Below are positions 26,701 to 35,615 of a DNA stretch of 35,615 nt, in pieces (the first letter of the stretch is position 1; the number at the start of each line of letters is the position of its first letter). The position numbers and the translations under genes were made by a program. The notes beneath the pieces were generated by a model. That model saw only the letters and a list, made by a program, of their open reading frames with translations. It was not told the DNA's origin and did not search any database. The DNA lies in NCBI GenBank assembly GCA_050745085.1, contig JBOGJB010000140.1, forward strand, positions 1 to 35,615, read 5' to 3'. The DNA is from Vicinamibacterales bacterium. Its GTDB lineage: Bacteria; Acidobacteriota; Vicinamibacteria; Vicinamibacterales; 2-12-FULL-66-21.

Positions 26701-27147
26701 AACGGCGGACCCTCGGGAACAGGCTATACCGACAACCAGAGGCCGAATCGAGTCGCCAGCGAGCCCTGCGACGCGCAGAGCGGGCCGGACGAGCAGATCA
26801 TCAACCCGAACGCCTATACGCTGAACGGCTTTCAGCTCGGGACGATCGGCAGCGCACAACGCGGCGACTGCACGGGTCCCGGGTACTTCCAGGCCGATCT
26901 GGCGTTCTACAAGAACATCCCGGTCGGCAGCCGGGTGAAGCTGCAGTTCCGGTGGGACATCTTCAACATCTTCAACAACACGAACTTCTTGTTTGCCGGC
27001 ATGAACACGAGCATGAACCCGTCTGCGGTGACGCTCAACGCCGCCCAGACAACGATTACGAGCGCGACGATTCCGACGAACTTCGGCCAGGCGACGCGGA
27101 CGCGCGATGAGAGGCAGATGCAGTTGGGCTTCAAGATCCTCTGGTAA
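23707..27147 (+). CDS. TonB-dependent receptor-like outer-membrane protein with N-terminal carboxypeptidase-regulatory-like domain (Oar-like)
   Basis: ATG at 23707 lies 9 nt after GGAGG. There is a signal peptide ([11 protein letters not shown]), a CarbopepD_reg-like unit ([51 protein letters not shown]), a plug-like region ([18 protein letters not shown]), a long beta-barrel and a C-terminal aromatic residue (GFKILW). Confidence 0.88.
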
Positions 27148-27171
27148 GGGCCCACCCCGGCTTTCGACCAT

Positions 27172-27198
27172 GGGCTGCGAGTGTCATGCTCGCAGCCC
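27172..27198 (+). terminator. Perfect 10-bp GC-rich hairpin (GGGCTGCGAG-TGTCATG-CTCGCAGCCC) between the receptor and GH3 genes; attenuator or RNA-stability element
   Basis: The stem is 27172-27181 with 27189-27198, with a 7-nt loop. It is followed only by a weak CCTTTC, so it is not a canonical intrinsic terminator. Confidence 0.4.
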
Positions 27199-27214
27199 AC
27201 CGGTACCTTTCACA

Positions 27215-29068
27215 ATGACTCGGATCTGTTCAATGGTGGCTGTCGGCTTCGTCGCGACCGCGCTGTCGTCCTGGGTCGGTGCTCCCGCCCAGCCGTCCGA
27301 GTGGCGGGACGCCGGCGCGCGCGCGTCCGAGCTCGTCTCGCGGATGACCGTCGCCGAGAAGATCGGGCAGATGACGCAGCCCGATCAGCAGTTCCTGAAG
27401 GACGTCTCCGACATCGAGACGCTCTTCGTCGGGTCGCTCCTGAGCGGAGGCGACTCCGACCCGAAGACGAACAGCCTCCAGGACTGGACCGAGATGTACG
27501 AGCGGTACCAGTCGGTCGCGTTCAAGACGCGCTTGCGCATCCCGCTTCTCTACGGCGTCGACGCGGTCCACGGTCATAGCAACGTCCTGGGTGCCGTGAT
27601 CTTTCCCCACAACATCGGCCTGGGTGCCACGCGGAACGCAAAGCTCGTGGAGGAGATCGGCCGCGTGACCGCGAAGGAAGTCCGCGCCACCGGCATCAAC
27701 TGGACGTTCGCGCCCTGCATCGCCGTGCCTCGCGACGAGCGGTGGGGACGCACCTACGAGGGCTTCTCGGAAGATCCTGCGCTCGTGGCCGAGCTCGGCG
27801 CGGCGGCCGTTCGCGGACTTCAGGCTGGCAGCCTGAAGAACCCGCTCGGCGCCCTCGCCTGCGCCAAGCACTTCGCCGGCGACGGCGGCACCGCATGGGG
27901 CACCGGCATGCGGATGGCGGAGGCGCCGGGCGGACGCTGGCCGCTCGATCGCGGCGACACGCGCGGCGACGAGGCCACGCTGCGACGCCTGTACATCGAT
28001 CTCTACATCCCGGCGATTCGAGCCGGCGTGGGATCGATCATGGTGTCCTACAACAGCTGGAACGGCGCGAAGATGTCGGGGCATCGCCGGCTGCTGACCG
28101 ACGTGCTCAAGAAAGAGCTTGGCTTCGAGGGCTTCCTCATCTCAGATTACAACGCGATCGACGAGCTGCCGGGCGACTACCGCTCCGACGTGCGCGACTC
28201 GGTGAACGCCGGCATGGACATGTTCATGGTGCCGGACAAGTATCGCGAGTTCATCACGACGCTGACCGCCCTCGTTGAAGCGGGCGAGGTCTCGATGGCC
28301 CGCATCGACGATGCGGTCACCCGGATCCTGCGGGTGAAGATCGCGATGGGCCTCATGGAGCCGTCGTGGTCCCCGCGCGCGGACCGCGGCCTCCAGAAGA
28401 CGTTCGGCTCGGCGGAGCACCGCCGCGTCGCCCGTCAGGCGGTCCGTGAGTCCATCGTCCTGCTCAAGAACGACGGGCGAACGCTCCCGATCGCCACCGG
28501 GGCGAAGCGCATCCAGGTGGCGGGCCGGAACGCCGACGATCTCGGCGCGCAGTGCGGCGGCTGGACGATCACGTGGCAGGGCAAGCGCGGTCCGGTGACG
28601 ACCGGCACAACCATCCTGCAAGCCATCCGACGCGCCGTCTCGTCCGGCACGAACGTGACCCATGCCGCGGACGGGGCCGGCGCGAAAGGGGCGGACGTGG
28701 CGGTGGTCGTCGTGGGGGAATCGCCATACGCGGAGTTCTTCGGGGACCGCTCGATCCTGGCGCTTGCCGACGAGGACGTACGGACGATCGCCGCCGTCAA
28801 GGAAACGGGCGTGCCCGTCGTTACCGTGCTCGTGACGGGGCGGCCGCTGATTCTCGGCCAGGCCCTTGCGGCGAGCGACGCGCTGGTGGCAGCCTGGCTG
28901 CCCGGGACCGAAGGGGATGGCGTCGCGGACGTGCTCTTCGGCCGGCACAAGCCCACGGGCAAGCTTCCGTTCACGTGGCCTCGATCGATGGAGCAGATTC
29001 CGATCAATGTTGGTGACACTCCGTATGACCCGTTATTCGCGTTCGGCTTCGGTCTTACCTATCGCTAG
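27215..29068 (+). CDS. Glycoside hydrolase family 3 (periplasmic beta-glucosidase / exo-beta-glucanase type)
   Basis: The start is taken at ATG 27215 ([26 protein letters not shown], a signal peptide). GH3 motifs are present: KHFAGDGGT and [14 protein letters not shown] (the nucleophile Asp context). The two-domain architecture is 617 aa long. Confidence 0.88.
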
Positions 29069-29141
29069 GGCCGGGTCGATTGCGGCCGTTGCCGCGATCG
29101 TCGTCGCGGGGCTGCCGTCGCACGCCTGGGCCCAGGGTTGA
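29025..29141 (+). other. Orphan signal-peptide reading frame ending in TGA, in frame with the downstream beta-barrel ORF
   Basis: It reads [38 protein letters not shown]-stop, with a basic n-region, a hydrophobic core and an AWA-Q cleavage-type site. TGA at 29139-29141 is immediately followed by GTG 29142 in the same frame. Confidence 0.7.
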
Positions 29142-30179
29142 GTGCTGATCAGACAGAACGCGCCCGTGCTTGGCGCGTCCAGCAACCTGTATCAGCAACC
29201 CGGGGAATGGCAGATTAGCGTGGCGGCCCGCGGGCTGGAATCCGACACGCACTACCGGCTCGACGAGCGCCAGGTGGAGCGCGAGGAGCTCGCCACCTAC
29301 GTCGTCAATCGCCAGTACGCGACCGACGTGACGGCGACCTACGCGTTCAACCGCCAACTCAGCCTGTCGGTCGGCGTGCCGTTCACGGCAGCCTCCTGGT
29401 CGATCCCCAGCCCGACGGGGCCGGCGCTCGGCCCGCGCGCGCAGCAGGACGCTCGCGGCCTCGGCGACATGTCCGTCGGAGGGCGCTACTGGATCGGGAA
29501 CGCGGAGCACTGCGTCAACGGGAACGTCAGCGTGGGGCTGGGCGTGAAGATGCCGACCGGGGAGGACCGCGCGCAGGATCTTTTCCCCGATCGCAACGGC
29601 CAGAACAACCAGCTCCGCTTCGTCGATCAGTCGGTCCAGCCCGGCGACGGCGGGTGGGGGCTGATGGCCGATATTCAGGGCTTCAGGCGGGTCGGCGTGC
29701 GCGGGCAGGTGTTCGCGTCCGGCAGCTACCTCGCGAACCCGCGCGACACGAACGACACTCCGTCGCTGACCGTGTCGCGCCTGCCGCCCGGCGTGCCGCC
29801 GCCCGCCAACTCGGACCGCCTCGTGAACTCGGTCCCCGACCAGTACCTCGTCCGCGCCGGCGCCGCGTACGCGGTCACGAGAAGGATCGGCGTCATGGGC
29901 GCGTATCGGCTGGAGGGACAGCGGCGCTACGACCTGATCGGCAAGAGCCACGGCTTCCGGCGTCCGGGCGTCGCGATGTTCATCGAGCCGGGCGTCAGCA
30001 TCGACACCGGTCCGGGGGCGATGTGGATGGCGCTGCCGGTTTCGTTCTACGTCAACCGGAAGCCGGATCCTTACACCGGCAACCAGGGAGATGCGACGTT
30101 CCCGAAGGTCATCTTCCTTGCGGGGTATCAGTTCCGTTTCGGCGGGCGTGCGGCCCCGGTGGCCACAGAGTCGAAGTAG
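29142..30179 (+). CDS. Outer-membrane beta-barrel protein (MetA-pathway/transporter-like), mature part only; possible pseudogene or recoded gene
   Basis: 345-aa ORF with alternating beta-strand patterns, an LGDMSVGGRYW motif and a near-terminal GYQFRF. It has no signal peptide of its own; that is encoded upstream of the in-frame TGA. The family assignment is tentative. Confidence 0.6.
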   Translation: MLIRQNAPVLGASSNLYQQPGEWQISVAARGLESDTHYRLDERQVEREELATYVVNRQYATDVTATYAFNRQLSLSVGVPFTAASWSIPSPTGPALGPRAQQDARGLGDMSVGGRYWIGNAEHCVNGNVSVGLGVKMPTGEDRAQDLFPDRNGQNNQLRFVDQSVQPGDGGWGLMADIQGFRRVGVRGQVFASGSYLANPRDTNDTPSLTVSRLPPGVPPPANSDRLVNSVPDQYLVRAGAAYAVTRRIGVMGAYRLEGQRRYDLIGKSHGFRRPGVAMFIEPGVSIDTGPGAMWMALPVSFYVNRKPDPYTGNQGDATFPKVIFLAGYQFRFGGRAAPVATESK

Positions 30180-31192
30180 CTCGCGCGCGACGCGATCGTC
30201 TGCTTCGCAGTCTCAATCTGCTCGAGGTTCCGCTCGTACGAGAGTTCGAGCGCGCCTGAGGGGAGGCCGCGCTCCGGCGGATAGATACGTTCGCGATAGA
30301 CCGGGTACGCCTCCGTCCGCAGGTGCGCGAGCATGTGATGGCCACGCCGCGTCTCGCGCTCGTGCCTGAGCGCGCTGACGTCGATCGGCCCGACCACGAT
30401 CCGCTCGCCCGGTCCGGGTGAAGCCTCCGCGATTATCCTGCCGTCGAAGTCCACGATCTGACTGCCGCCCGGCCACGAGTACGGCGGGTAGTGCCGCAGG
30501 CTCGCCCCCTGGTTGGCGGCGACGACGAACGCGACGTTCTCGAGCGCGCGGCAGCGGTTGACGATCGTCCACCAGTTCATCGGCTCGGTCGCGCCCCACG
30601 GGTCCATGTACGCGGAGACGCGGACGAGCACTTCGGCGCCGTTCGCGGCGAGCTGGCGGATCGCCTCCGGAAATAGCCAGTCGTAGCAGATCGCGCAGCC
30701 GATGCGGCCGATCTCGGTGTCGGCGACCGGAAAAAGCGGCTCGTCGTAGCCCGCGATGTCATGCGGGCTCGCATGGACCTCGTACGGGATCCACGGGTTG
30801 ACCTTTCGGTACCTATAAAGGATGCCTTCCGGGCCAATGAGGCACGTCGTGTTGAAGACGACGCCCGGCCACCGCGGATCCGCCTCGATGAAGGACCCGC
30901 TCTGGATGTAGATGCCCAGCTCGCGCGCGCGTCGCTCGAGCCGATCGGTGTGCTCGTTCGGGATCGGCAGCGCGAGACGGTCGGCCAGCTCCGCGGCCGT
31001 CGGGTACACGGGAGCGGCGTGCGCGAACTCCGGAAAGACGACGAGCCTGACCGGGAGGAACGGCGCGCTGCCCGCGACCGCTGCGTCGACCATCGCCAGC
31101 ATGCGATCGGTGTTGTTGCGCATGTCGGTCCGGTCCGCGGGGTTGGCGAGGTCGGTCTGGCAGGCTGCGGCGGCGTAGCGAATGTGAGTCAT
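30128..31192 (-). CDS. Carbon-nitrogen hydrolase family protein (nitrilase/aliphatic-amidase-like)
   Basis: The start is taken at ATG 31192 (MTHIRYAAAACQTDL), overlapping the upstream stop (ATGA). The Glu-Lys-Cys triad contexts are LVVFPEF, YRKVNPW and GCAICYDWLFPE. The layout resembles AmiE/AmiF-type amidases. Confidence 0.85.
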   Translation of the reverse strand: MTHIRYAAAACQTDLANPADRTDMRNNTDRMLAMVDAAVAGSAPFLPVRLVVFPEFAHAAPVYPTAAELADRLALPIPNEHTDRLERRARELGIYIQSGSFIEADPRWPGVVFNTTCLIGPEGILYRYRKVNPWIPYEVHASPHDIAGYDEPLFPVADTEIGRIGCAICYDWLFPEAIRQLAANGAEVLVRVSAYMDPWGATEPMNWWTIVNRCRALENVAFVVAANQGASLRHYPPYSWPGGSQIVDFDGRIIAEASPGPGERIVVGPIDVSALRHERETRRGHHMLAHLRTEAYPVYRERIYPPERGLPSGALELSYERNLEQIETAKQTIASRASYFDSVATGAARPPKRN

Positions 31193-34100
31193 GGCTGAGG
31201 CCCGATGAGCGGCGGCAGCATGCGGCTGACGATCCGCGTGTTGTAGCGTTGGAGGTACTCCTGGTGCGCGCTGCTGGCCGGATACCTTTCCGGCGGCGCG
31301 TACGGATAGCTCGTCATTCCATGGAACGGCATCGGCCACACCGCGTCGGGGCTGGACGAGTGCAGGTCCATCTCCTTGCTGAAGCCGTCGGCATGCAGGA
31401 GGAACGTCCGGGCCGAGCCGGCCGGCAGGGATGGCAACCCGCGCGCGTCGAACGACAGGGCGATCTCGTCGCCGGGGCGAGAGACGACGAACCTGTCGTC
31501 GGTCGCGCGGACGAGCGGGCGCACGTCCCCCTCGCGCGTGTAGCGACCCGGCATCAGCTTCCAGGGCGAGATGGCCGAGACGCGCGCGTAGTCGTAGCGG
31601 TACGGCTCGTCCGGTGTCGATTCGGCCGAGTAGCCGCGCCAGCGGAGGTGCGCGCGGATCGGCTCGAGGGGTCTCAGTCTGAACGGCGCGCGGCCATCCG
31701 ACACGTCAATCAAGATCTGGTCCCAGTAGATCCGCATCGTCGTCGAGATTCGCACGTGGCGCGCCGACGGCGGAATCGACTCCGACAGATCCACGACCAC
31801 CGTCTGCGGCCGGCCGACGGGGACGCCGATATCGGCGATGGCGATGCGCCAGCGTCCGTTGTCATCCTTGATCTCGAGCGACGGCGGCAGCAGCCGCAAC
31901 CCCGCCTGGCTCGCGGCGAAGTTGTCGCTCGAGAACGCGTAATCGGTCCAGCCGGTCAGCAGGAGCAGCCGGCGCCCGGTCCGAGATTCGGGGAGGGTCA
32001 GCGTGACGTGATGCGGCGCGGCGTAGCCGCGGATCCGCTCGAGCGCGAAGTCATCGGGATAACGGCGATCCGGACGCGACACGCGGTCCAGCACATCGTG
32101 GCCGTGCTCGTCGATCGCGGCCAGCGGCGGGGCGGCGCCGCGCGTCGTGTGCAGCCGGAACGGCGGCGGCGCGCCTCTGAGGCCTTCTTCCGGATAAATC
32201 CCCACCTCCGCAGGATGATCGATCGCGATGAGCTGCGCGCGATCGAGGAAGAGCGCCTCTTCCAGCTCGTTGGTCACGCGCAGCTCGTACTGGCCGTCGC
32301 GCTCACGGAGCTGACGGCCGTCGATGCGCACGTACTCATCCGGGTCCGGCCGGGTCCTCACGCCGGGCGCGACGAAGTACCCCAGCTCGCCGCCGCCGAG
32401 GAAATCGGTCACAAACTCGAACTGCTCGCCGTTCCAGGTGTAGAGGTACGGACAGGACGAGGGTTTGCGATCCAGCTCATGGACGGTGAGCGCAGCTTCG
32501 GTCGAAGCGGGGATCTCGGCCTGCAGGATGCCCGCGGGCCAGAGCACGCGCACGACGTCGGCGCCGGCCCGCGCGCCGAGGCCGAACAGAAGGTCGGCCG
32601 TGGCGACCGCCGGGGTCGCGGCCGACGTCTCGAGCTTCTGGCGCAGGCTGCCGGCGCGCATCTCGACTTTGGATCCGAGCGCGCTGCGGTTGCTCACTCG
32701 CGCGTTCAGACGCACCCGGAGCGAGCGTCCCGCATTTCCGCCTTCGTTGCGCAGGACGATCGGACCTCCGCTGTCGGGACGCAGGATGAGGTCGACGTCA
32801 CCATCTCCGTCGACGTCCCCCGTCGCCACCGACCCTGGCGAATAGTTGGCAGGCGCAGAGGATCCCAGCGCTCGTGCGGTGACGTCCATCCATCGAGCGC
32901 CAAGATTGCGGAGCAGCCGCGGGCCGGCCGAGGTCAGCGTCAGCAGGTCGAGAAGCCCGTCGTTGTCGTAGTCGATGAACTGCGCCGCCCTGACGTCGGT
33001 GGCGGCGCCGATGGGCTCGACCCTGAACCGGCCGCGCCCGTCGCTGAGCGCCAGCGCCGCTCCGGCCGCGCGGCCGAAGACGATGTCCGTGTACCCGTCC
33101 TTGTTGACGTCGGCCAGCGCGATCGCGTCCGCGCTGCCTCCAGCGGCGAGCGTGGTCTCGGCCGCTACATCCCGGAACGTCCCATCGCGCATGTTGCGCA
33201 GCAGGAGCGGGTTGGCGCCTCCATGCGCCACGACGATGTCAATGTCGCGGCGGTTGTCGTAGTCAGTCGGCGCCACGCCGGCGACCTGGGTCTTCATCTC
33301 CAGACCGGCTGCGACGGTGATATCGGTGAACGTCCCGTCGCCGTTGTTGCGCGCGAGCAGGAGCGATCCGCGGGTACCACCGGCTGAGCCTCCGACGAGG
33401 GCGTCGAGATCGCCGTCGTGGTCGGCGTCGAGCCACGCGGCGGTGCGCGGCGACGACGGACCGGCAGGCAGGCCCGTGACCTCTTCAAACCGGCCCGCGT
33501 CCTGTCGAAAGAGCGACCAGCGATCGTCGTCTAGCAGGAGCAGGTCCGGGAGAAAATCGTTGTCGTAGTCACCCGCTACAGCGTGCCGCGGAATCCTCGC
33601 GCCAAAGGTCGCCCCGCCCGTCCTGTCGCTGAAGCGGCCGCGGTCATTGCGGTAGAAGTGAAGCCCGAGCGGATCGATGTCGATCAGATCGAGGTCGCCG
33701 TCGCCGTCCAGATCGACGAGCGTGGCACGCCCTCTGCGCGCCGCGCCCTCCCGCTTCCGCGCGTCCTGCAGGACGGTCGCCGTCACGTCCGTGAACGTCA
33801 CGTCCGGGACACGCTCATCCACGAGCTCGGGCTCAGCGCCCGTCGACGCGATTGCCTCCGCGTACCGTCCCTGCTCGAGGTAGTTCTGCGAATAGGTCGT
33901 GGCATACGCGGTGTCGCGCAGCTTCTGGAACCGGGCCATCGCCGCGGTCCCTTCCTCGCGCGAGCCCGCGCGCGTGAGCGCCATCGCGAGGCCGTACGCG
34001 GCCGTCACGTTGAACGGCTCCGCGTCGAGCGCGGCCTGAAAGAGGTCGCGCGCTTCCGCATACTCCCGCTCCTGCAGAAGGAGCTGACCCAGTTGCGTCG

Positions 34101-34503
34101 CGGCGCCGGGGTCGCGTGAGTCCAGCTCGCGCACGCGCGCGAATGCGGCGACAGCGTCCGGCGTCCGGTTTTCCGCTCGCGCGATGAGACCCAGGATGTA
34201 CGGCGCCTGTGGGACCGCGGACATGCGGGCCGCCGCCGCTTCCGCCTCCTTGCGCGCCGCCGGCAAATCCGCCGCGTAGAACAGCGCGATGGCGAGGTTG
34301 ACGCGCGCAAACGTCAGGTCGGGTTGCTGTTCGAGCGCCTGGCGGAAGGCGGCGGCCGCCGCCGGATAGTCGAACTGCTCGAGGCGCGCGACGCCGAGGT
34401 TGTTCGCGCGATAGGCGTCTTCGACAGATTGGGCCGACTGCTGGAATAGCGCACCGGCGGCGAGCGCTATCCCGCATCCCACGACGGCGAGCGCCCGCGT
34501 CAT
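31189..34503 (-). CDS. Large secreted protein: TPR repeats + FG-GAP/VCBS repeats + ASPIC/UnbV domain + ~425-aa uncharacterised C-terminal domain
   Basis: The start is taken at ATG 34503 (MTRALAVVGCGIALAAGALF), overlapping the upstream stop (ATGA). TPR-like repeats cover ORF aa ~60-250 and DxDGDGDLD loops cover ~290-620. An UnbV-like segment (RSLRVRLNARVSNRSALGSKVEMRAGS) follows, then a distinct domain beginning SCPYLYTWNGEQFEFVTDF. Confidence 0.85.
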   Translation of the reverse strand: MTRALAVVGCGIALAAGALFQQSAQSVEDAYRANNLGVARLEQFDYPAAAAAFRQALEQQPDLTFARVNLAIALFYAADLPAARKEAEAAAARMSAVPQAPYILGLIARAENRTPDAVAAFARVRELDSRDPGAATQLGQLLLQEREYAEARDLFQAALDAEPFNVTAAYGLAMALTRAGSREEGTAAMARFQKLRDTAYATTYSQNYLEQGRYAEAIASTGAEPELVDERVPDVTFTDVTATVLQDARKREGAARRGRATLVDLDGDGDLDLIDIDPLGLHFYRNDRGRFSDRTGGATFGARIPRHAVAGDYDNDFLPDLLLLDDDRWSLFRQDAGRFEEVTGLPAGPSSPRTAAWLDADHDGDLDALVGGSAGGTRGSLLLARNNGDGTFTDITVAAGLEMKTQVAGVAPTDYDNRRDIDIVVAHGGANPLLLRNMRDGTFRDVAAETTLAAGGSADAIALADVNKDGYTDIVFGRAAGAALALSDGRGRFRVEPIGAATDVRAAQFIDYDNDGLLDLLTLTSAGPRLLRNLGARWMDVTARALGSSAPANYSPGSVATGDVDGDGDVDLILRPDSGGPIVLRNEGGNAGRSLRVRLNARVSNRSALGSKVEMRAGSLRQKLETSAATPAVATADLLFGLGARAGADVVRVLWPAGILQAEIPASTEAALTVHELDRKPSSCPYLYTWNGEQFEFVTDFLGGGELGYFVAPGVRTRPDPDEYVRIDGRQLRERDGQYELRVTNELEEALFLDRAQLIAIDHPAEVGIYPEEGLRGAPPPFRLHTTRGAAPPLAAIDEHGHDVLDRVSRPDRRYPDDFALERIRGYAAPHHVTLTLPESRTGRRLLLLTGWTDYAFSSDNFAASQAGLRLLPPSLEIKDDNGRWRIAIADIGVPVGRPQTVVVDLSESIPPSARHVRISTTMRIYWDQILIDVSDGRAPFRLRPLEPIRAHLRWRGYSAESTPDEPYRYDYARVSAISPWKLMPGRYTREGDVRPLVRATDDRFVVSRPGDEIALSFDARGLPSLPAGSARTFLLHADGFSKEMDLHSSSPDAVWPMPFHGMTSYPYAPPERYPASSAHQEYLQRYNTRIVSRMLPPLIGPQP

Positions 34504-35615
34504 TGCCCGGCGGACCGCGTCGAGTCGCGTAGTTCTTCGACTGTCACCGTCTGGTTCGCGCGCGTCCCCGGCAGCGTCTGCGTGCGGCCGTTCGGCCACT
34601 TCACCTCGATCTTGTCCACGCGATCGGCGCGGCCGAGACCGAACGTTAGCGGCAGCTCGCTTTGCGAGCAGTAGCTGGACCCGCTCTTGACGAGCGCCCA
34701 GGCCGACGGCCGGCCCCCGGCGAGCGTCACACGTACGGACGTGCCGATGGCGTCGCGGTTGGACACCGTCCCAACGGCCTGCACGCGCAGCCAGTTGTTA
34801 CGAGGCCCGCCTGCGCGGCCGGAGCCGCCTTGAGGCGGCGAAGGCGCGCCGTCGTTGCGCAGCAGCCGCGCGGGGCCGTTGTTGGTCGTGACGAGCAGAT
34901 CGAGGTCGCCGTCGTTGTCGTAGTCGCCATAGGCGGCGCCGCGCGCTACCATCGGCCGGGTCATCGCCGCGCCCACGCGTGCGGTGACGGCTTCAAACTG
35001 CCGCTTGCCGAGATTCCGGAACAGGTGCGGCGGCTGAGCGTAGGTCACCCTCGGCTGCACGGCGTTCACGTCGTCGGCGACGTGACCGTTGGCCGCGAAG
35101 ATGTCCAGGCGACCGTCGAGATCGAAGTCGAAGAAGAAGCAAGCGAAGGTCAACGTGAGCAGCGAGGCGCGCCCGATCGTGGACGGCGGCGCCTCGTCTA
35201 TGAAGAGGCCGTTCCCTTCGTTCGTGTACAGCGCCATCATCTCGTTCGAGAAGTTGCCGATGACGAGGCTCTGACGGCCGGAGCCGTCGTAGTCGGCGGC
35301 GTCGACGCCCATGCCGGCCCGCGCGACGCCCGCTTCGTTGAACGCGACGCCGGCCGCGACGCCGACATCGTTGAACGTCCCGTTCTTCTTGTTCTCGTAC
35401 AGGCGGTTCGGCTGCGTGTCGTTGGCGACGAACAGATCGATCCATCCATCGTCGTTGAAGTCGATCAGCGCGACACCGAGCGCTTTGGCCGTCGGGTCGA
35501 GCAGCCCCGCGGGCTTCGTGGCGTTCTCGAACGTGCCGTCGCCGCGGTTGCGGTAGAGCGTCGAGCTCTGCCCCTTGTACGACTCCGGCGTGCAGTAGGA
35601 CTTGGTCTTGCCGTC
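34500..35615 (-). CDS. CRTAC1 family (FG-GAP + ASPIC/UnbV) protein, N-terminus outside window
   Basis: I translated the minus-strand frame up to base 35615 and it stays open (…GDGTFENATKPAGLL…DFNDDGWIDLFVAND…NGTFNDV…GMGVDAADYDGSG…). The C-terminus, NWLRVQAVGTVSNRDAIGTSVRVTLAG...GSSYCSQSELPLTFGLG, is typical UnbV/ASPIC. Confidence 0.85.
   Translation of the reverse strand, partial: DGKTKSYCTPESYKGQSSTLYRNRGDGTFENATKPAGLLDPTAKALGVALIDFNDDGWIDLFVANDTQPNRLYENKKNGTFNDVGVAAGVAFNEAGVARAGMGVDAADYDGSGRQSLVIGNFSNEMMALYTNEGNGLFIDEAPPSTIGRASLLTLTFACFFFDFDLDGRLDIFAANGHVADDVNAVQPRVTYAQPPHLFRNLGKRQFEAVTARVGAAMTRPMVARGAAYGDYDNDGDLDLLVTTNNGPARLLRNDGAPSPPQGGSGRAGGPRNNWLRVQAVGTVSNRDAIGTSVRVTLAGGRPSAWALVKSGSSYCSQSELPLTFGLGRADRVDKIEVKWPNGRTQTLPGTRANQTVTVEELRDSTRSAGQ

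Follow-up and report, generated by a model that had tools for sequence, protein, structure and literature searches.

Background

The reference case for the insertion of selenocysteine (Sec) into bacterial proteins is the fdhF gene of Escherichia coli, where an in-frame UGA is followed, just downstream and still within the coding sequence, by a stem-loop, the selenocysteine insertion sequence (SECIS) that works together with SelB, and where homologues with cysteine (Cys) exist. According to the consensus model of the bacterial element (bSECIS), the apical loop measures 3-9 nt and the upper stem 4-16 bp, a G in the first two loop positions is followed by G or U, the loop lies 16-37 nt from the UGA, and the minimum free energy (MFE) of the hairpin is at most -7.5 kcal/mol (PMC13188914). 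A review of May 2026 counts 119 prokaryotic selenoprotein families and subfamilies; the outer-membrane barrels listed there are of the GSU2204/MtrB-PioB type or belong to a TonB-dependent receptor with an FCYXU motif (PMC13188914). Here we describe a gene that shares with fdhF the in-frame UGA, the coding-sequence stem-loop just downstream and the Cys homologues, and that lies in a stretch of 35,615 nucleotides from a Vicinamibacterales bacterium of the phylum Acidobacteriota (contig JBOGJB010000140.1 of assembly GCA_050745085.1, forward strand), hereafter the window.

The protein in question is an outer-membrane beta-barrel of the class represented by FapF and the COG4313 channel, which, to our knowledge, is not known to contain Sec. 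As argued below, the TGA at positions 29139-29141 very probably encodes selenocysteine, and there is every likelihood that the frame in which it stands is a single intact gene, whose product is an exported selenoprotein with an outer-membrane beta-barrel.

Results

A frame of 38 codons that opens with ATG 29025 on the + strand of the window runs into the in-frame TGA at 29139-29141; the same frame resumes with GTG 29142 and ends with TAG 30177-30179, so that the barrel-encoding open reading frame (ORF) comprises 345 amino acids (aa). These positions are those of the initial annotation, all of which hold. When the genome was searched for the barrel gene, a single match was obtained, which holds one internal TGA, and there was no second copy. 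TGA is a normal stop in this genome: it ends both the Pfam-supported CN-hydrolase gene (30128-31339, minus strand) and a gene for a protein of 1136 aa (31189-34599, minus strand). A global recoding of UGA, already dismissed in the initial annotation, is ruled out for this reason. The features of the gene are collected in Table 1.

Table 1. Predicted features of the barrel gene in the window, with the evidence for each
Feature	Positions	Strand	Basis
Probable complete selenoprotein gene, 384 codons including Sec39	29025..30179	+	unbroken frame if TGA is read as Sec
Signal peptide of the general secretory (Sec) type, 36 aa, with predicted signal peptidase I site AWA/QG	29025..29132	+	sequence; orthologue leaders
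Gln-Gly, predicted mature residues 1-2	29133..29138	+	Q1 and G2 invariant (65 aligned sequences)
Very probable UGA selenocysteine codon, residue 39 of the precursor and residue 3 of the mature chain	29139..29141	+	codon conservation
Conserved N-terminal peptide VLIRQNAPVLGASSN, within which the putative SECIS is encoded	29142..29186	+	homologue starts; motif kept in Cys forms
Putative SECIS mini-hairpin, stem 29158-29164 / 29172-29178, apical loop CGUGCUU 29165-29171	29158..29178	+	covariation, folding
Lower stem, 29144-29152 with 29187-29196, lineage-specific	29144..29196	+	fold of the window, L022 and L023 only
Outer-membrane beta-barrel body, FapF/COG4313-like	29205..30176	+	AlphaFold2, Foldseek, profile

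The most telling evidence comes from the orthologues. From species-representative genomes of GTDB, 80 loci were taken, and the column of the codon can be placed at 78 loci, the window counted in; the majority are Acidobacteriota (Vicinamibacterales, Thermoanaerobaculia, Holophagales, Polarisedimenticolia), and a few come from Armatimonadota, Verrucomicrobiota, Binatia, Planctomycetota and Bacteroidota. The column reads TGA at 67 of the 78 loci and TGC or TGT at the remaining 11, with no third kind of codon: among the residues that had been considered for this position, Cys does occur, and Trp, Gly and Arg do not. At all loci, the upstream frame encodes a hydrophobic leader with a small-x-small end that is followed by Q-G (AWAQG, AAGQG, FAQG and similar), and in an alignment of 65 sequences, which are 40-89% identical to the window protein (with one outlier, L094, at 30%), the triad Q-G-(U/C) is invariant. 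This family-wide invariance answers the objection, raised in the initial annotation, that a selenocysteine two residues after a signal peptidase site has no obvious rationale. The maximum-likelihood tree requires at least five exchanges between Sec and Cys, a behavior commonly seen in genuine selenoproteins.

A protein search with the read-through product returned about 3000 homologues. The aligned database homologues all begin right after the TGA (M/V-L-I-R-Q), none of them has a signal peptide, and members of the family are publicly named "hypothetical protein". Since the conserved in-frame TGA is followed by a GTG, gene callers yield shortened entries that start after the TGA; GTG 29142 is a false start chosen in this way. 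As to the nucleotides themselves, contigs from the independent soil sequencing runs X3 and X17, which represent relatives of about 90% identity, cover positions 29139-29141, and the best-supported differences listed for them include none at 29115-29197, both flanks being variable.

Some of the sampled loci deserve separate mention. Three (L066, L073 and L075) are labelled as belonging to the Patescibacteria group and one (L089) to Bifidobacteriaceae. Several metagenome-assembled genomes (MAGs) built from long reads look irregular: the barrel gene stops after 100 aa in L063 and after 69 aa in L096, and L094 sits on a very long tree branch. Premature stops or frameshifts are found in the barrel gene of L063, L094, L096 and L098 and in selB of the genomes G001, G004 and G005; in these long-read MAGs they look like homopolymer assembly errors and not like biology.

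The RNA that follows the TGA in the window folds with an MFE of -34.2 kcal/mol (z -2.3) into a structure that contains an upper and a lower stem, and the 21-nt mini-hairpin folds on its own with -11.4 kcal/mol (z -2.1). Its conservation was assessed in the 45 nt after the UGA of 66 Sec-form loci, which align without gaps. The distance from the UGA is fixed at 16 nt to the hairpin and 23 nt to the loop. The upper stem (columns 20-26 with columns 34-40) is paired in 95.8% of the cells as compared to 87.0% in column shuffles, not one of 500 shuffles reached the observed score, and in a control where the 3' partner was slid by 1-3 columns only 22-47% of the cells were paired. Compensatory changes are seen in four of the seven stem pairs, namely AU/CG in the closing pair, CG/GC/AU, CG/GU and GC/AU/CG. 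Some of the paired changes are synonymous wobble changes (Ala GCG/GCA opposite Gly GGC/GGU), and others alter two amino acids jointly (Ala-Pro...Gly-Ala to Gly-Pro...Gly-Ser). The loop has the consensus C-G-U-G-Y-U-Y, with both G invariant and U present in at least 90% of the sequences, and the five variants that were folded have energies from -9.5 to -14.1 kcal/mol. The hairpin of the window, with a loop of 7 nt, a stem of 7 bp, G-U at loop positions 2-3, a UGA-to-loop distance of 23 nt and an energy of -11.4 kcal/mol, falls within every limit of the bSECIS consensus.

Hence the likeness to bacterial SECIS elements that had been noted from the window is confirmed, with covariation in addition. 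The hairpin as first drawn survives in part: its upper stem belongs to the MFE fold and is in register at all 66 Sec-form loci, but its lower stem, although it does fold, is seen only in the window, L022 and L023, most orthologues having CUCAUC in place of CUGAUC and no pairing there. The lower stem was accordingly dropped as a part of the SECIS, not being conserved beyond the window and its nearest relatives.

The Sec forms and the Cys forms of the gene differ in how their codons are constrained. The Pro codon is CCC in 66 of 67 Sec forms and CCG in 10 of 11 Cys forms; the Val codon is GTG in 65 of 67 Sec forms, and I, L, M or V stands at this position in the Cys forms. Synonymous sites are thus frozen in the Sec forms only. 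Of three Cys forms that were folded, two show no hairpin, and in the third, L074, the hairpin is in another register, with AUC as a loop of 3 nt. This shifted-register hairpin (L074:3083-3103, -13 kcal/mol), which occupies the old SECIS position, is likewise present in L079, L081 and L085, all members of one Cys-form clade, where it may be the relic of a recently lost SECIS.

The genome of the window, assembled into 606 contigs and 81.8% complete, contains selB (348.7 bits against a cut-off of 242), selD and a tRNA-Sec, the latter scoring 60 bits and being called by ARAGORN as SeC with the anticodon UCA (tca). selD is represented by two pieces at contig ends (222.7 and 168.1 bits), one of which has an in-frame TGA. 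The pieces lie at positions 2-529 of contig C103 (L008) and 2471-3007 of contig C82 (L009) of the window genome (G000), with the TGA in the N-terminal part: SelD is itself a selenoprotein in this genome, and the assembly breaks inside its gene. Both selA, above cut-off, and selB are present in each of five near-complete relatives with the TGA form, which include the two closest ones (87% tblastn identity over the match); selB is fragmented by frameshifts in three long-read assemblies. Since selB was also found in all five Cys-form genomes that were checked, the comparison between Sec-form and Cys-form genomes does not discriminate.

AlphaFold2, run on the 65-sequence alignment, places mature residues 25-337 with confidence in a beta-barrel (mean pLDDT 90.3, pTM 0.87). 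The best Foldseek match is the amyloid-subunit transporter FapF (5o67/5o65; E 1.9e-15, TM-score by target 0.72), and the COG4313 channel of Pseudomonas putida (4rl8) is matched as well (E 1.4e-10, TM-score by target 0.76); in addition, the family profile matches the FapF sequence at 2.3e-8. The Pfam model PF13557 (Phenol_MetA_deg) is matched weakly by 28 of the 65 members (E up to 0.01; best E 9.8e-8). The window protein itself has no match to PF13557 at E up to 0.1, and Pfam and NCBIfam scans with it gave nothing usable, only DUF2490 at E 0.075. The protein is placed in the barrel superfamily by its modelled fold and not as a Pfam member. Its last strand ends with ..Y-x-F-R-F, and 17 orthologues stop exactly at ..RF or ..RL (..Y-R-F in most); a C-terminal aromatic end at the last strand is the usual beta-signal of the substrates of the BAM machinery.

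The peptide that precedes the barrel has the motif U/C-[VI]-L-I-R-x-x-[AS]-P-x-[FI]-G, which is kept in the Cys forms too and, therefore, matters as protein and not solely as a SECIS. Neither around U-V-L-I-R nor elsewhere in the conserved N-terminal peptide is there a second Cys or Sec. FapF and the COG4313 channel each have an N-terminal segment that, in their structures, lies within the barrel or plugs it, and the Sec peptide might similarly be active in the lumen or at the periplasmic mouth.

The opposite end of the protein provides some clues to its function. In an even-stranded barrel the C-termini are periplasmic. When the C-termini of 58 Sec forms were classified, bearing in mind that related loci are not independent, 24 of them proved to have a Pro-rich tail with exactly one Cys near its end, and two to have whole CxxC domains (HMA or thioredoxin-like). 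Lone-Cys tails occur at L025, L028, L031-L034, L037, L040-L042, L044, L046, L048, L051, L052 and L058, and further at L062, L066, L071, L080 and L087-L090. All ten Cys forms considered have tails without Cys, and the window protein has a single Cys, in a predicted loop. The lone C-terminal Cys could be the Se-S partner of the N-terminal Sec.

Some proteins of the wider set have one or two HMA domains fused to them, which reach 113.7 bits against NF041115 (cut-off 95) and are also matched by the CopZ and MerP models, and others are fused to a TlpA/ResA-like thioredoxin domain. Through the HMA-domain fusions the family is linked with the binding of soft metals. About seven of the sampled loci have a TlpA-like or HMA module, either fused to the barrel or next to it. 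At four loci (L032:3330-4724, L033:3072-4685, L034:140-1711 and L063:3789-4613), the TlpA-like motif DFWATWCAPCK lies in another frame, after the barrel ORF or overlapping it, which represents either a separate overlapping gene or a frameshifted barrel-thioredoxin fusion (compare the proteins P0096 and P0110).

With regard to the neighboring genes, the signal-peptide region shares its first 44 nt with the end of the GH3 gene that lies upstream (stop 29066-29068). This gene, for a GH3 beta-glucosidase (27107-29068), is read in a different frame, and a GH3 gene also adjoins the barrel gene upstream in the closest relatives (L021-L026, L092). The overlap may reflect co-transcription, or the true start of the barrel gene may lie elsewhere (a further ATG stands at 29007). 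On the other side, the CN-hydrolase gene and the 1136-aa gene, the latter with TPR, FG-GAP and ASPIC domains (together 30128-34599, minus strand), are convergent to the barrel gene. The best neighbor clusters, each found in at most 16 loci, are GH3 (in close relatives), FG-GAP/ASPIC proteins, hybrid histidine kinases and a TPR multiheme cytochrome. A TPR protein with five CxxCH heme motifs (Cytochrome_C554 or MtrC-like Pfam matches) adjoins the barrel gene at several loci of Vicinamibacterales, among them Sec forms as well as Cys forms, downstream in L024 (4175-7066), L025, L074, L079, L081 and L085 and upstream in L072.

Discussion

When considering whether the TGA encodes selenocysteine, it has to be asked what else an in-frame stop could mean at this place. 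In the initial annotation, decay or error was held to be likelier than Sec, a judgment that is reversed by the prevalence of TGA among the orthologues, by Cys being its sole alternative, by the covarying hairpin and by the machinery present in the genome. A recent nonsense mutation would have turned the gene into a pseudogene whose barrel, if produced at all, lacks a signal peptide, and one could invoke in its favor that TGA is a normal stop in this genome and that every public annotation puts a gene boundary at the codon. However, a recent mutation would hardly recur at 67 of 78 loci across Acidobacteriota classes and other phyla, between proteins of 40-89% identity; moreover, both flanks are under purifying selection, QG is invariant, and the hairpin downstream is conserved and covaries. 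Nor is the combination that would mark a plain pseudogene, namely orthologues with a sense codon together with a genome devoid of the Sec machinery, what is found here. The fragmentation of the assembly into 606 contigs might, in turn, suggest a sequencing or assembly error in the MAG, the true codon being a sense one, but the same TGA is seen in dozens of independent short-read and long-read assemblies, and the contigs from the independent soil runs X3 and X17, which span the codon, have no listed difference in its surroundings (29115-29197). Taken together, the conservation of TGA, its exchange for Cys and the invariant Q-G in relatives exclude, therefore, both pseudogene and assembly error for practical purposes: we consider the former extremely improbable and the latter hardly credible.

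Two other possibilities accept that the frame is functional. The UGA might be read through without Sec, by a near-cognate Trp, Cys or Arg tRNA with stimulation by the hairpin, or might serve regulated termination that limits the synthesis of the barrel. Stop-codon read-through stimulated by downstream structure does exist in other systems, and the presence of selenium in this protein rests on prediction; but the only sense codons at the column are those for Cys, the hairpin fits the entire bSECIS consensus including the G-U of the loop, selB, selD and tRNA-Sec are present in the genome, and selB was found in all ten relatives checked (five each of the TGA and the Cys form), all of which makes such a bypass of Sec highly improbable. 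Alternatively, the selenoprotein might be processed as a lipoprotein, with QG/U serving as the lipobox and Sec as the lipid-modified first residue. Here the Cys or Sec does come directly after a hydrophobic leader, and W-A-Q-G-C formally fits the permissive PROSITE lipobox pattern. Yet, as judged by eye, the stricter lipobox [LVI][ASTVI][GAS]C is not matched, position -3 being A or G and not L, V or I, and position -2 being the invariant Gln; what precedes QG conforms throughout to the small-x-small rule of signal peptidase I (AWA, AAG and FAQ-type variants), and integral barrels need no lipid anchor. A lipoprotein, accordingly, appears very unlikely.

Selenocysteine thus remains the preferred meaning of the UGA, but several observations weigh against it, or against the functional proposals that follow from it. 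The selenium in the protein is predicted at the level of sequence and not from a transcript or a peptide. The search of sequencing runs brought up only relatives, covering at most 19% of the sampled words, and no convincing RNA signal. Taken as a single sequence, the hairpin has a z-score of about -2, which is modest in comparison with shuffles, and a part of the stem conservation could stem from the conserved peptide A-P-V-x-G-A; an Rfam scan of 29050-29300 at E up to 10 gave chance matches only (mir-9235, a frameshift site). The survey of sel genes, by which the initial annotation had proposed to judge the case, came out positive for selB, selD and tRNA-Sec and negative for selA, which has no match in the 81.8%-complete assembly of the window genome; the missing selA is most simply explained by incompleteness of the assembly. 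As for function, mature residues 1-20 are modelled by AlphaFold2 at low confidence, and of the 58 classified Sec forms, 18 have no tail and 14, the window included, have a tail without Cys. Neighborhood clustering over the 78 loci revealed no conserved operon, and the function, therefore, cannot be read from the gene context.

With these reservations, the following course of events can be envisaged for the Sec-containing barrel. SelB and tRNA-Sec, assisted by the in-frame SECIS at 29158-29178, would decode the UGA; upon export, signal peptidase I would cut at AWA/QG, leaving a mature N-terminus Gln-Gly-Sec-Val-Leu-Ile-Arg. The conserved N-terminal peptide, which is probably flexible, would then carry the Sec at the periplasmic or lumenal entrance of a FapF/COG4313-type barrel, where the Sec could serve as a ligand for soft metals (of the Cu or Hg type) or chalcogens, or as a redox-active selenol. 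In this capacity it might act with a periplasmic thiol partner, i.e. the lone C-terminal Cys or the HMA or TlpA-like modules, the two jointly gating or loading the channel. The pattern of C-termini fits a selenol with a periplasmic thiol partner, be it for soft-metal binding or as an Se-S redox switch. A soft-metal or thiol-redox role on the periplasmic side is nevertheless a tentative proposal, for which we would claim somewhat less than even chances; still more tentatively, the selenol of residue 3 might serve the channel in capturing soft metals or chalcogen species at the outer membrane, in gating them or in handing them over. The same selenol may do so either as an N-terminal X-X-Sec chelate or as an Se-S pair with the C-terminal Cys or an HMA or thioredoxin partner; that such a chelate is permitted by the position of Sec, with invariably two residues between it and the predicted cleavage site, is speculation.

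If selenocysteine is indeed encoded here, some 3000 database entries of the kind "hypothetical protein, about 345 aa, no signal peptide" are shortened annotations of selenoproteins, and the selenoproteome counts for Acidobacteriota, a dominant soil phylum, are too low. The family is widespread in soil Acidobacteriota and occurs also in Armatimonadota, Verrucomicrobiota and others. The use of the selenol envisaged above would amount to selenium chemistry on the cell surface in soil bacteria that are for the most part aerobic. For a selenol, the extreme N-terminus of a mature envelope protein is an unusual position, which draws attention to a possible handling of metals or chalcogens at the outer membrane. 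The predicted tryptic peptide QGUVLIR offers a simple target for soil metaproteomics and for cultured Vicinamibacteria, and the Sec and Cys forms constitute a clean natural data set on the constraint that a SECIS imposes on coding sequence.

Relation to known systems

The family defined by the QGU barrel is very probably a new selenoprotein family decoded by the standard bacterial mechanism. The list of 119 families contains nothing like it (PMC13188914), the papers on deep-Sep and BSepDB do not mention it, and the window protein has no match in NCBIfam release 20 at E up to 0.01. The decoding itself would follow fdhF in all essentials; unlike in that paradigm, the host protein is an outer-membrane barrel instead of a cytoplasmic or periplasmic oxidoreductase, and Sec stands at mature residue 3, directly after the signal peptide, with no CxxU or UxxC. 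With FapF (5o65/5o67) and Pput2725 (4rl8), the window protein shares the barrel fold and a weak but significant sequence relation, whereas the identity is only about 12-16%, there is no FapF-type operon in the window, and neither of the two known proteins has Sec or Cys at the mature N-terminus. The catalogued outer-membrane selenoproteins, NF041027 and NF049945, are likewise outer-membrane beta-barrels with predicted Sec (PMC13188914), but their barrels belong to other families, in which the position and the motif of the Sec differ, and the window protein matches neither model; it would add to the known selenoproteins a third type of outer-membrane barrel. Finally, the C-terminal domains of some family members match NF041115, the HMA-type UxxU metal-binding (seleno)protein, as well as CopZ and MerP; in contrast to NF041115, the fused domains carry CxxC and not UxxU, and the window protein has no HMA domain.

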